This document shows, piece after piece, positions 11,437 through 25,557 of a stretch of 64,000 nucleotides of DNA. Source of the DNA: Eledone cirrhosa (lineage: Eukaryota); assembly GCA_964016885.1 (NCBI GenBank), contig CAXHJY010000293.1:55298-119297 (forward strand), read 5' to 3'. Position 1 is the first letter of the stretch. Each line of letters starts with the position of its first letter. Under the pieces are notes generated by a model. The model was not told the DNA's origin. It ran no database searches and saw nothing but the letters and a program-made list of their open reading frames with translations. Both the position numbers and the translations under genes were made by a program.

Positions 11437-11519
11437 ACTTCCTGACGACGAAAGGCATTCTCCATGTGTTCCATTCGGAAACCATGTTTATTCCCTTTCA
11501 GAAACTAATTAGTTGGAGT
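11437..11519 (+). ncRNA. Type I hammerhead ribozyme with extended stem II
   Basis: ACTTC-CTGACGA-cGAAAGG[~38 nt including a CATGtgTTCC-attc-GGAAacCATG hairpin]CCTTTCa-GAA-ACTAATTAGT-T-GGAGT. Confidence 0.8.
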
Positions 11520-11966
11520 GAGATTTTAGTAATTAAGTAAATTTTTATAATTTTCTTATTTTATGTCTTTCATATAATTGTTCTGCATCCCTTTGAATTG
11601 AACCGCAAAGTTACTTAACCAAAACCTATATATTTGCTAGCATAGGTATGCATCTGTATATATATGTTGGTAGATATACTAATTCTTTATAATTATCTCC
11701 AAATTATTTTGTTGAGCAAAAATTTGCCAAAACTGCTACTATAGTTCATAGTAATAGTCAGCTACTGTCTTCTTAACACCCCAATCCTCACTGATTAACC
11801 TCGATATCACGTGATTGATTCTTTTGAATTTGCCACCGACCAAGTAGGCAGTGATTTTTTTCTGTGTCTTGGAATTTAGTCAACGCTTGCTTGTTTCCAT
11901 CCACTGAATTATTTAAGTATACGTTCCCTGTGTCCACGCATCGCCTGGGAACTTAGCTGAGAATTG

Positions 11967-12049
11967 ACTTCCTCATGACGAAAGGCATTCTCCATGTGTT
12001 CCATTCGGAAACCAGATTATTTCCCTTTCAGAAACTAATTATTTGGAGT
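11967..12049 (+). ncRNA. Mutated, probably inactive second hammerhead copy
   Basis: Core CTCATGA (G5C) and stem III ACTAATTATT instead of the palindrome ACTAATTAGT. Confidence 0.7.
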
Positions 12050-12133
12050 GAAATTTTAGTAAGTTGATTTTTTATAATGTTCTTATGTTACGTCTTTCAT
12101 ATAATTGTTATGCATCTCCTTGCATTGAACCAA

Positions 12134-20867: not shown

Positions 20868-22238
20868 ATGATGTTCCAGAACAATGTAAACGAGATAATT
20901 GCCAATTTGGGTTCTGGAACAAAAAAGATCATTGGCAATAAGGGCAGGGGCCCCAAGTTATCACAACCTGGGCCCGCCCGTCATCGTGCCATTGTAATAG
21001 AGCCAAACAGGGCATTTAGTCTTGGCTGCTGGAACGTACGGACGCTGCTTGACAGGGATTCTTTGGAGCGTCCTGAACGAAGGACCGCTCTTGTTGCGAA
21101 GGAGCTTCGACGTTACGATCTTGACATCGTGGCTTTGTCTGAGACGAGGTTAGCTGGAGATGGTCATCTTACGGAATTTTGTGGAGAATATACATTCTTC
21201 TGGAAAGGAAGAGATGAAGGAACCAGAAGAGAGGCTGGGGTAGGATTTGCTGTTAAGACTGTACTGGTGAATAAATTGGAAGAATTCCCAGTGGGGATTA
21301 GTGAGCGTCTTATGTCCATGAGAGTTCCGCTGGACAAGGGAAGATATGCTACCCTGGTGAGTGTGTATGCTCCAACTATGAATTCTGTCGATGAAGAAAA
21401 ACTGTCCTTTTACCATGCCTTGAAAGGTGTTTTAAGAAATATCCCTCAGGCAGACAAAGTCATCGTGCTTGGTGACTTTAATGCTAGAGTGGGTAGGGAT
21501 TTTAACACATGGAATGTAATCGGAAGGCATGGGGTGGGAAAGTGTAACAGCAATGGTATGCTCTTGCTGCAGATGTGTGAGGAGCTGGATCTGTGTGTTA
21601 CCAACACCATGTTCCAACAAAAGAACAAATTCAAGACCACATGGATGCATCCTGCATCTAAGGAATGGCATCTTTTGGACTACGTCCTAGTCAGGATGCG
21701 TGACAGACAGGATGTGCGGTGTGTTCGTGTTCTTCGTGGAGCTGAGTGCTGGACGGACCACCGCCTGGTACGCGCAAAAGTGAATCTAATCACCAAACGT
21801 AAAATCCGGGCTCCTGGTGTTACCCTGCCCAAAAGATTGAATGCTGCTCGTCTTAAGGATAAAAATGTGAAGAGGACATTGGAAGAAGAGATGCAGGCTG
21901 CAGATCTTGGTGAGGATTGGCCGACCCTTAAAAAGTCGGTTTATGATGTAGGCAGACGTGTTCTGGGATTGGTGCAGAGAAAACATCAGGACTGGTTTAA
22001 TGAGAAAGATGTGCATATAGATGACTTGTTGGCTGATAAGAGGCGCGCTCTGTCACGCTACTTGACGGCAAGACCACAGGAGAGGAATACGTTGCATGAG
22101 GAGCTCAGGGATGTAAAATCACGTGTTAGGCGGAGTCTTTCTCAGATGAAGGATCAGTGGTGGAGTGAGAAGGCTGGTGAGATACAAACTGCGTCTGATT
22201 GCAATAACACAAAGCCTGTTGTACAGTCTCTTGCGTGA
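20868..22238 (+). CDS. RTE polyprotein N-terminal part: AP-like endonuclease; frameshifted at about 22213
   Basis: WNVRTL, LSETR, VYAPT, LGDFNARVG, LDYVL and TDHRL motifs. Confidence 0.9.
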   Translation: MMFQNNVNEIIANLGSGTKKIIGNKGRGPKLSQPGPARHRAIVIEPNRAFSLGCWNVRTLLDRDSLERPERRTALVAKELRRYDLDIVALSETRLAGDGHLTEFCGEYTFFWKGRDEGTRREAGVGFAVKTVLVNKLEEFPVGISERLMSMRVPLDKGRYATLVSVYAPTMNSVDEEKLSFYHALKGVLRNIPQADKVIVLGDFNARVGRDFNTWNVIGRHGVGKCNSNGMLLLQMCEELDLCVTNTMFQQKNKFKTTWMHPASKEWHLLDYVLVRMRDRQDVRCVRVLRGAECWTDHRLVRAKVNLITKRKIRAPGVTLPKRLNAARLKDKNVKRTLEEEMQAADLGEDWPTLKKSVYDVGRRVLGLVQRKHQDWFNEKDVHIDDLLADKRRALSRYLTARPQERNTLHEELRDVKSRVRRSLSQMKDQWWSEKAGEIQTASDCNNTKPVVQSLA

Positions 22239-24414
22239 GGTTTATGGACCGTCTTCTTCTCTGGTGACACCGATTCGCAGCAAGGATGGCAAAGAACTTC
22301 TTCGTGACTCACAGGGAATTCTACGAAGGTGGCGGGAGCACTTTGATGATCTTTTGAATCAGCCGTCTGTCGTCAGTGAAGATTTCCTCAATCTCATTCC
22401 GGAAAGTCCTGTGAAAGTAGCTCTCGCAGAGCCTCCGACACTTGTGGAGGTTGCAGTGGCTATTTCGAAGCTGAACAGTGGAAGATCTCCAGGTATGGAT
22501 GGCATACATGCTGAGCTCCTACAATATGGTGGTGAGAGACTCCTGCAACATCTTCACTCTCTGTTTGGAAGGATATGGGCTAATGAATCCGTGCCTGAGG
22601 ACTGGAGAGATGCAGTAATGGTGGTCTTGTACAAGGGAAAGGGTAACAGGAATGATTGTGGGAACTACAGAGGTATATCATTGCTTTCTGTCGTGGGGAA
22701 AGTTTTATGTAGGGTGCTTCTGGACCGTCTGCTGACACACATTGCAGATTGTGTCCTTCCTGAAAGTCAATCTGGTTTTCGTGTTGGACGCGGCACTACT
22801 GATATGATCTTCTCAGCTAGACAGCTCCAGGAGAAGTGCATTGAACAGGGCTTGGATCTGTATCAGGTTTTTGTCGATCTGACAAAGGCTTTCGATACTG
22901 TCAACAGAGATGCATTATGGAAGGTTCTCCAGAAACTTGGTTGCCCTGATAAGTTCCTTGCTTTAGTTAGGTCTTTCCATGACGACATGAAGGCTTGGGT
23001 TAATGTCGGAGGTAACATGTCGGAGCCTATCTCAGTAAAAAATGGAGTGAAACAGGGGGATATTCCAGCACCGACCCTGTTTGCCATATACTTTGCAATG
23101 GTTTTCTGTATTGCATTCAGGAATTGCGAGCATGGTGTTTACATCCGATATCGAACCTCAGGCAGCATATTTAACATCAGGCGCTTTGCTGCGAAGACAA
23201 AAGTATTTACATCAGTCATAAGAGACCTCTTGTATGCAGATGATTGCGATCTTGTAGCGCACACAGAGAGTGATATGCAGCACATTTTGAATGTATTTTC
23301 TGACGCTTGCACTGCCCTGGGTTTGACTGTCAGTCTCAAGAAAACCGTCGTCATGTACCAACCTGCACCTGGTAGGCAGTACACTGAACCAAACATCTAT
23401 GTGTATGGCAAACGACTTGGAGTGGTTGATCAGTTTGTCTACCTGGGAAGCACTGTCAATCGATACGGCAACCTTGACAGTGAAATCTCACTTAGGATTA
23501 GGAAAGCAAGTGATGCTTTCGGAAAGCTAGAAAGGCGACTCTGGGGTCGGCGAGACATATGCAGGAGGACAAAGGTAAAGGTGTACAGGGCATGTGTACT
23601 CTCTTGTCTTCTTTATGCCTGCGAGACCTGGGTCACATATCGACGCCACCTTAAGCAATTGGAGCGTTTCCATCAGATGTGTCTCAGACGGATACATGGC
23701 GTTCGCTGGAGGGACCACATCAGTGATGTCGAGATTTTGGAAAGCTCTATGTGTGACAGTATAGAAGCTCTTGTGCTTAAGCAGCGACTCCGTTGGAGTG
23801 GTCACCTTGCCAGGATGAAGGATTCTAGAATACCAAAACAACTCTTCTATGGAGAGTTGGTTAAAGGAAAACGACCGCCACATAAACCAAAAAAGAGGTA
23901 TAAGGATTCCTTGAAGGCCTCTCTGAAAGACGCTAACATCTCTGCTGATACATGGGAAAATATTGCTGCTGATCGTAATAAATGGAGAAAGACTGTATAT
24001 GAGGGAAAAGTTGCCTTTGAGGCATCTCGAATCGCACACGAGAAAGTAAAGCGGGACGTGAGGAAGGGTATTGCTGTTGCACTTCCAGACGGCGAGGGTC
24101 CTCCTATGTTTCTGACATGCAGCGTCTGTGCGAGACTCTGCCTAAGCAAAGCTGGACTCGAAAGTCATCTTCGCAGTCATAAAGTAAGACCAGTGGTTGA
24201 CTACCAGGCTGCTGTTGGAGATGCTACTCATCATGCTTGCCAAACATGTGGTAGAGAATGTAAATCAGCAGGAGGACTCAAGCGACATGCAAAAGTACAC
24301 GAACTCCAACCACAGCCGACTATTCCCAGTAAATGTTTTGGTTGCCGACTCTGTGCAAGACATTTTGGATCATTGGCTGGGCTAAAAAGCCACATTCGAT
24401 CGCAGCACTGTTAG
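22165..24414 (+). CDS. RTE polyprotein C-terminal part: reverse transcriptase plus three C2H2 zinc fingers
   Basis: [34 protein letters not shown] and YLGS motifs, then three CxxC..HxxxH(xH) fingers. It joins the upstream ORF after removing 1 nt. Confidence 0.92.
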
Positions 24415-25392
24415 TTGCTATCGTGTGTTTGTGTGTGTGTGTGTGTGTAGATATGCTTATGTGCGTGCGTGTGTGTGTATATATATATGAATATGTATAT
24501 TATTATTGTTGTTGTCGTTATTATTATTATTGCTATTATTATTATTATTATTATTATTATTATTATTATTATTATTATTATTTTTTTTTTTTTTTTTTTT
24601 TTTTTTTTTTTATTGTGCAATGGCCATACTCGATAACGAGGGGGCAGCCATCATATATATATATATGTATGCATATATATATATGTATGTATATATATAT
24701 ATGTATATATATATATATGTATATATATATGTATATATATGTATATATATATGTATATATATATATATGTATATATATATATATGTATATATATATATAT
24801 ATATATATATATATATATATATATATATATATATATATGTATATATATATCTATGTATATATATATCTATGTATATATATATCTATGTATATATATATAT
24901 CTATGTATATATGTATATATATATGTATGTATATATATATGTATATATATATATATATGTGTATGTATACATATATATATATGTATGTATATATATGTGA
25001 ATGTATATATATATATATATATATATATATATATGTATGTATGTATGTATATATATATGTATGTATATATATGTGCATGTATATATATATATATATATAT
25101 ATATATATATATATATATATATATATATGTATATATATATATATATATATGTACATGTATATATGTATGTACATATATATATATGTATGTACATATAAAT
25201 GTATGTATGTGTATGTATATATATATATATATATATATATATATATGTATATATATATATATATATATGTACATGTATATATGTATGTACATATATATAT
25301 ATGTATGTACATATAAATGTATGTATGTGTATGTATATATATATATATATATATATATATGTATGTATATATATATATATATATATATATAT

Positions 25393-25557
25393 AAACAAGG
25401 TTTAGTAAATAATGAAAAAGTTTCAAAATAAATTTTAAAAAATTGACTTTACCTACTATAGTTACCTTTACCGATCGGTTTCGAATGCCAAAAATAAAAC
25501 GGAGACCATACGGCCTTCGTTGCAAAGAGAGATTCTCGTCAGAAGGTTCTTTTCATA
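25393..25557 (-). mobile_element. About 165-bp insertion consisting mostly of a hammerhead ribozyme
   Basis: Unique island in (TA)n; apparently absent from the paralogous microsatellite site near 29990. Confidence 0.65.
25464..25547 (-). ncRNA. Type I hammerhead ribozyme with long stem II insertion
   Basis: ACCTT-CTGACGA-GAAT[~45 nt]ATTC-GAA-ACCGATCGGT-A-AAGGT; canonical core, GUA triplet. Confidence 0.88.

Follow-up and report, generated by a model that had tools for sequence, protein, structure and literature searches.

Type I hammerhead motifs have been described in Penelope-like elements (PLEs) and in retrozymes that lack long terminal repeats (non-LTR retrozymes). The palindromic type I motifs of PLEs are reported to cleave as dimers (PMC4209133) and the hammerhead of the Anolis PLE is described as requiring protein assistance, while pseudoknots linking stem I with stem II have been reported for ~40% of hammerheads and are considered necessary for speed (PMC3088659). 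A tandem-plus-inversion layout and the targeting of (TA)n are described as PLE traits (PMC8557442), and non-LTR retrozymes are defined by such tandems (PMC7229834; bioRxiv 10.64898/2026.07.22.740005). In the present study, a window of 64,000 nucleotides from Eledone cirrhosa (assembly GCA_964016885.1, contig CAXHJY010000293.1, positions 55,298 to 119,297) was analyzed, which consists of eukaryotic repeat DNA, about half of it (TA)n microsatellite. Three motifs in this window, designated H1, H2 and H3, are, as judged from their letters, type I hammerhead motifs with a long insert in stem II, forming a recurring structural variant in Penelope/retrozyme-like repeats.

Anatomy and recurrence of H1, H2 and H3

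A sequence-only reading of the window had proposed three hammerheads with a 5-bp stem I, a structured insertion of 38–50 nt in stem II and a perfect 10-nt palindrome as stem III, and a descriptor scan recovered all three with this architecture where they had been placed (Table 1). The type I core (C3UGANGA9 / G12AAA15 / U16-H17, or its U3-A8 variant) is present in each of them, the U3-A8 core being a known natural swap (PMC4209133), and stem I is 5 bp and stem III a perfect 10-nt palindrome throughout. Stems I, II and III follow the C-G-S order with stem I open, as determined by order scan for H1 and H3 and from the coordinates for H2. The stem II regions of H1, H2 and H3 measure 52, 59 and 53 nt, with inserts of 38, 50 and 45 nt when the closing stems are left out, and the closing stem II has 6 bp in H1, 4 bp in H2 (weak and bulged) and 4 bp in H3.

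Table 1. Positions of the hammerhead motifs and associated elements in the window
Feature	Position	Strand	Details
H1	11429..11519	+	core CTGACGA 11442-48; stem I 11437-41/11515-19; H17=U at 11514
H1, further parts			closing stem II 11450-55/11494-99; distal hairpin 11463-86; TTTATT 11487-92; GAA 11501-03
H1, candidate pseudoknot strands		+	flank GAGAAT 11429-34; insert strand ATTCTC 11457-62; 6 bp
H1, stem III	11504-13	+	palindrome ACTAATTAGT; predicted cut after 11514
H2	16888..16983	-	core TTGATAA (U3-A8 variant) at 16972-; stem I 16977-73/16892-88; H17=C at 16893
H2, candidate pseudoknot strands		-	flank GAGGT 16983-79; ACCTC 16957-53; 5 bp
H2, further parts		-	TTTATT 16916-11; palindrome ACTACGTAGT 16903-894; predicted cut after 16893
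H3	25464..25552	-	core CTGACGA at 25542-; stem I 25547-43/25468-64; H17=A at 25469
H3, candidate pseudoknot strands		-	flank AAAGA 25552-48; TCTTT 25528-24; 5 bp
H3, further parts		-	TTTATT 25498-93; palindrome ACCGATCGGT 25479-70; predicted cut after 25469
H1 array	11007..12132	+	2.1 tandem copies of a 530-bp non-coding unit, 34% GC, units ~91% identical
Second H1 copy	11959..12049	+	broken: core G5 and one palindrome base changed; flank and candidate pseudoknot strands intact
Inverted piece	10961..10997	-	copy of the sequence just 3' of the predicted H1 cut; 5' edge of the array, beside (TA)n
H4a	40263..40409	+	31-nt stem II region, 8-nt palindrome, weak stem II
H4b	38603..38749	-	147-bp inverted duplicate of H4a, 96.6%
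Full PLE	52256..57226	+	reverse transcriptase (RT) and GIY-YIG open reading frame (ORF) 54368-56695; identical 769-bp pseudo-LTRs

The strict architecture was observed three times in 31,839 non-microsatellite bases and in none of 400 Markov simulations, and the relaxed pattern was likewise observed three times, against three in total across 150 simulations. Conservation and covariation of the stems had been set beforehand as the test of the proposal; with four copies aligned, pairing holds in 39 of the 40 cells of stems I and III, six of ten pairs are altered on both sides and none of 500 shuffles matches this, in a comparison whose structure had been derived from the same sequences, and the natural copies retain the stems. 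The inserts share no alignable similarity (p 0.14–0.44). Three families had also been proposed, and this holds for H1, a multi-copy family, but H2 and H3 are single copies in the window. Similarly, the insert of H1 is structured, folding far better than its shuffles (z -3.9), but this could not be said of H2 (z -1.4) and H3 (z -1.3). The expectation that a recurring architecture would escape searches was borne out, as the Rfam hammerhead models gave no matches in the window at the gathering score and none on H1–H3 even at E<=10, although the short motif at 12146-12216 was weakly detected. Since hammerhead censuses use Rfam models and short-stem descriptors, abundant families such as H1 would go uncounted.

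A further pair at 38.6/40.3 kb (H4a and H4b) had been regarded as an intermediate form. It is intermediate in length, but it is one duplicated motif with an 8-nt palindrome and no significant upstream-flank helix (p 0.33–0.44), an 8-nt complement to the insert being situated in its 3' tail instead. Membership of H4a/H4b in the H1–H3 subtype is unsupported, and the pair represents a shorter, weaker motif.

A candidate helix between the upstream flank and the insert

The inserts of all three motifs follow the same layout, in which a short closing stem II leads into a pyrimidine-rich strand, a hairpin, TTTATT and the closing stem again. In H1, H2 and H3 alike, the pyrimidine-rich strand is complementary to a purine-rich flank which ends 0–2 nt before stem I, at an offset of 7–8 within stem II, with a different sequence each time. 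The cognate flank-insert pairs reach 6, 5 and 5 bp, against 1–2 bp in all six non-cognate combinations, and the downstream flank, used as a control, gave 4, 2 and 2 bp with the inserts of H1, H2 and H3, respectively. The helix was counted by script, as the sequence alignment of the motifs does not register it; single p values were 0.007–0.012 (H1), 0.012–0.021 (H2) and 0.06–0.19 (H3), and the combined values 0.0007–0.0017 unconstrained and 3e-5 with the position fixed, all of which are optimistic because the helix had been seen before it was tested. Given this complementarity, a pseudoknot between the first strand of the insert and the flank just upstream of stem I is likely.

TTTATT recurs on the 3' side of each insert (p 0.013). 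The sequence AATAAA is the poly(A) signal and TTTATT its reverse complement, so the latter may be an antisense poly(A) signal; that UUUAUU might act as a third strand in a triple helix with the flank helix is speculation. The insert could instead be a tolerated neutral extension of loop II, with a flank match arising by chance and TTTATT reflecting an opposite-strand AATAAA or an AT-rich background. Such a neutral origin, which would be in line with the small number of motifs, the post hoc test, the weak H3 value, the poor folding of the H2 and H3 inserts (no better than z -1.4) and the poly(A) complement, is nevertheless judged improbable, as the pairing is cognate-only and as compensatory change, a UUCG cap and replacement of the whole hairpin are found between fixed flanking strands.

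These changes were obtained by comparing one H1 unit with four public sequencing runs (X1, X4, X5 and X6, from organisms A and B, none recorded as RNA). The unit matched 2,296 of 16.3 million contigs in X1 and 6,297 of 12.5 million reads in X6, mostly at <95% identity, and H1 is therefore a large and diverse repeat family; the contig depth dips over the distal hairpin and has its maximum just 3' of it. In X5, from the second organism, G11466A occurs in all of the covering depth (21.3/21.3), as does C11483T (67.9/67.9), and together they replace a G-C pair of the distal hairpin by A-U in a compensatory swap. C11471T and the loss of 11473 are found in X5 at a depth equal to that of G11466A (two contigs), and by our own reading they would create a C-UUCG-G cap. 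The reads of X6 carry the hairpin changes of X5 too; G11466A, for instance, is present in 107/307 and 80/238 of them. An unrelated distal hairpin running into TTTATT is seen in the loose ends of one contig each from X4 and X5, the longer X5 end having a 7-bp hairpin stem preceded by a TTCTC strand as in H1, and a third version of the distal hairpin is present in eight X1 contigs. Among H1 copies the distal hairpin is thus either altered compensatorily or replaced, with the pseudoknot strand and UUUAUU constant. An extra C was also found in the 5' strand of stem I in 256/848 reads, and the loose ends imply an extra A in its 3' strand; if carried by the same copies, the two changes would yield a 6-bp stem I.

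The turnover of the hairpin bears directly on the suggestion of the sequence-only reading that the insert may serve in recognition by the RT. GCAA had been noted in the 16.9-kb and 25.5-kb insertions together with a U-rich 3' side, and it does occupy one and the same position in the H2 and H3 inserts; it was rejected as a motif common to all three, being missing from H1. A domain recognized by the Penelope RT or another protein would account for the TTTATT shared by the 3' sides of all inserts, for the equal placement of GCAA in H2 and H3, and would suit the protein-assisted Anolis PLE hammerhead. However, the sampled ORF-linked PLE hammerheads have no insert, and the RT-recognition idea is unsupported because H1 lacks GCAA and its copies differ in which distal hairpin they carry. 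The hairpin turnover argues against a sequence-specific RT-binding domain, and we consider a protein-recognition role quite unlikely, although help from a protein, as in the Anolis PLE, is conceivable. What stays constant is the flank-pairing strand together with UUUAUU, a pattern pointing toward a tertiary contact within the RNA.

The explanation we favor, which seems to us fairly probable, is that in H1–H3 a pseudoknot docks the extended stem II with stem I and the palindromic stem III allows cutting as a dimer, within Penelope/retrozyme-like repeats. It starts from what the DNA itself shows, namely the core and stems, the palindromes, the complementarity, the turnover of the hairpin and the tandem/inverted layout of H1, and adds to this a pseudoknot in the active fold, the cleavage sites, and 530-nt units with circularisation and copy-back. 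Stem II would be extended into an internal loop and a replaceable hairpin, the first strand of the loop pairing with the upstream flank; the resulting helix would hold stems I and II parallel and so dock them, and the distal hairpin would merely close the loop. Two copies would pair through the palindromic stem III (duplex energies of -9.0, -12.9 and -16.6 kcal/mol for H1, H2 and H3, against +1.5, +1.5 and -0.9 for the monomer hairpins), leading to dimer cleavage after 11514, 16893 and 25469, respectively. Transcripts across the H1 tandems would then be cut into 530-nt units, which may circularise and be copied back by the Penelope RT.

Several observations weigh against the docking model. When folded freely, the motifs do not adopt the hammerhead structure at minimum free energy (MFE; z +0.04 to -0.70), and these folds are 5–6 kcal/mol more stable than the forced monomer fold, to which no pseudoknot or dimer energy is credited; the closing stem II of H2 is absent even in the constrained fold, and in H2 and H3 the MFE structure uses the flank helix to close an inactive hairpin. 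The helix of H3 is not significant alone, there are three motifs, and the helix was noticed before testing. No substitution falls in the pseudoknot strands among 40 of the 225 substitutions, so these provide no within-family covariation evidence for the helix. The second H1 copy at the locus is broken, so two consecutive intact units are not found there, and no PLE ORF match lies near H1–H3 within the window. Finally, a PLE protein search retrieved 17 loci in bacterial genome bins (L280–L296, most likely host DNA contamination) with 11 short motifs in 10 of the 17, and none has a convincing long-stem motif, one weak 56-nt candidate being judged chance.

The folding results could also be read as a switch, in which the flank helix forms first in transcription and traps the core in an inactive state, cleavage awaiting dimerisation or a protein. 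In H2 and H3 it is this very flank helix that the MFE folds place around a mispaired core, and PLE hammerheads are described as slow or protein-assisted; on the other hand, the MFE fold of H1 has no such trap, and the linkers fit a docking helix between stems I and II, including in permuted forms for which one has been predicted. We rate the switch as unlikely, though the non-hammerhead free folds, the weak H2 closing stem and the inactive hairpin closed by the flank helix in H2 and H3 leave some room for it.

Genomic elements and searches for further members

The H1 unit is without a recognisable gene, carries one type I hammerhead and is highly repeated in the genome. The inverted piece at the 5' edge of its array looks like a Penelope-like 5' inversion, and the (TA)n site of the array is PLE-like as well. 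Strong folding of the 530-nt circle was considered and not upheld, the fold being modest (-102 vs -91 +/- 7 for 40 shuffles). H2, which is solo, occupies a non-coding island of ~500 bp with (TA)n tracts on both sides, and H3, also solo, lies in an island of ~165 bp that is likewise bordered by (TA)n tracts and starts a few bases before the flank strand. The full PLE of the window bears an ordinary short hammerhead and represents a possible class of trans-acting partner for the H1–H3 elements; the named relatives of its protein are mostly from bivalves or bivalve symbiont bins.

Besides the three long motifs, several ordinary short hammerheads were detected in the window by the descriptor scan. 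In the region 26764-27937 a 310-bp unit is repeated in tandem ~3.8 times at 99% identity, each copy having an intact short hammerhead, which makes this a typical young retrozyme-like array. For another tandem unit of ~610 bp, found between (TA)n tracts at 13606-14496 and 30900-31647, the scan gave no clear hammerhead. At 7169-9558, inverted repeats bound an element with a short hammerhead in each (7242-, 9485+), a PLE-type inverted structure, and a 5'-truncated PLE at 18014-19200 retains the GIY-YIG end with a degenerate short hammerhead at ~19040 in its 3' region. An RTE-like long interspersed nuclear element is also present, and 397-bp direct repeats (95%) around 1.4 kb without a long ORF at 33716-35896 look like a non-autonomous LTR-type element.

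Further members were sought in viral and metagenome collections, which contain little animal DNA. The pattern scan found none in the viral collection (0/120 loci in 54/64 parts; three loose passes rejected as non-palindromic with weak stems), in a second viral set (0/42 loci; a single loose pass rejected) or in the metagenome collection (0/117 loci in 19/64 parts; a single loose pass rejected), and the PLE protein search of viral contigs gave no matches. One large metagenome repeat cluster turned out to be a minimal hammerhead seen from its reverse strand. Three further perfect palindromes from metagenome loci are without stem I and match chance. A covariance model built from the four window copies and restricted to stems I and III recovered just its inputs and, at E 0.03, the locus L200. 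L200:828-928 and L236:1-110 are related animal-like repeats with both hammerhead core boxes 54–55 nt apart and no proper stem I, and in them an upstream strand pairs covaryingly with both ends of the spacer.

Comparison with described hammerheads

A possibly undescribed subtype had been suggested. The combined architecture was not found in print in a literature search of open-licence papers, but its ingredients are known singly, namely the palindromic stem III of dimers, the U3-A8 core, pseudoknots linking stem I with stem II, a long loop II and retrozyme tandems; motifs from Aedes and Saccoglossus already have a 10-nt palindromic stem III (Cervera 2014 Fig S3, PMC4209133; Perreault Fig S8 legend, PMC3088659), and long loop II has precedents too. 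The pseudoknot-stabilised hammerheads, including human C10orf118/HH10 (Perreault 2011, PMC3088659), likewise have a Watson-Crick helix of 4–6 bp between the stem I and stem II regions. In H1–H3, however, the strand that pairs forms one side of an internal loop, beyond which lies a hairpin, and stem III is of the dimer type. Highly repetitive type I motifs are stated to be excluded from part of that analysis, and the palindromes of H1–H3 are absent from 11 of its supplement files, outside which the alignment PDF may lie. In the PK hammerhead (Zhan 2024, PMC11300833) a pseudoknot also serves the global fold but replaces helix II, and this identity was rejected, as H1–H3 retain helix II with its closing stem.

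The spike-moss PLE-X1 hammerheads (Craig 2021 File S2, PMC8557442), two of which are listed and flagged as deviating, also belong to a PLE and have a long loop II of 29–35 nt, but with an irregular stem I, no 10-nt palindrome and no pseudoknot described by the authors. By eye, the first strand of the 35-nt loop II in PLE-X1_sMoe is complementary to the 5' flank and a hairpin comes next, which may be the H1–H3 layout in a plant PLE.

The type-CSG non-circularly permuted hammerheads (Eckert 2023, PMC10085705) share with H1–H3 a long stem II insert and a helix between the stem I flank and a strand after stem II, the flank helix having been predicted by those authors for their two CSG sequences. 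They differ in that the cleavage block lies within the insert, while H1–H3 keep the C-G-S order, the only order found in the window, where no permuted one was detected. Naiads are reported to be without canonical hammerheads (PMC8557442), and only two CSG sequences are given in the 2023 paper (PMC10085705). By eye, the 3' ends of Naiad_Hpol and Naiad_Asuum from nematodes (PMC8557442 File S5) hold complete type-CSG permuted hammerheads with 5-bp stems I and II, a stem III of 6–9 bp and flank helices of 16 and 8 bp. In these two consensi the flank helix is positioned as in H1, is longer and has the same 2-nt and 1-nt linkers, which by this inspection would support the docking geometry. The 3' ends of Naiad_Ovul and Naiad_Obim show, by eye, a 'half core' in S-G-C order with stems I/III crosswise and a weak stem II, resembling type SGC. 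An identity of H1–H3 with the Naiad 'half-core' motifs (eight flagged) was rejected, their layout being absent from the Ovul, Esco and Hpol 3' ends and from the part of Naiad-3_Dst covered.

A more far-reaching proposal, which we put forward tentatively as possible rather than likely, is that H1–H3 belong to a widespread, database-invisible subtype in invertebrate Penelope-derived repeats, with an internal-loop pseudoknot dock (possibly with UUUAUU as third strand) and a plug-in hairpin, bridging type I and CSG hammerheads. If the bridge were real, type I and non-circularly permuted CSG forms would differ only in whether the cleavage block is inside the insert, and the common helix geometry suggests a route by which permuted hammerheads could arise. 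A natural hairpin-swap slot beyond the docking strand would suit aptazyme design.

With metazoan non-LTR retrozymes (PMC7229834; bioRxiv 10.64898/2026.07.22.740005), H1 shares a non-coding, low-GC tandem whose units each bear a single type I hammerhead, and a genome that also contains PLEs. Its unit is 530 bp, against 150–450 bp (PMC7229834) and 51–972 (bioRxiv 10.64898/2026.07.22.740005) for the units described. In contrast to retrozymes, a canonical loop 1-loop 2 motif is missing, H1 has a broken second copy at this locus, and H2 and H3 are solo.

The minimal type I hammerheads of metazoan PLEs (Cervera and de la Pena 2014, PMC4209133) resemble H1–H3 in the type I order, the palindromic helix III, a helix I of 4–5 bp, the U3-A8 variant, an unpaired base after A9 and the repeat context. 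Their own helix II is described as short, measuring 7–8 bp in the families from Schistosoma, and as having a small loop, and no tertiary contact is known for it. A short helix II of this kind was not found in H1–H3, whose stem II regions stand against 13–19 nt in the PLE loci and whose inserts combine an internal loop with a hairpin and a strand complementary to the upstream flank. By description, PLE hammerheads lack tertiary contacts and cut weakly, and a pseudoknot-docked form would be a natural exception among them, possibly a faster one.

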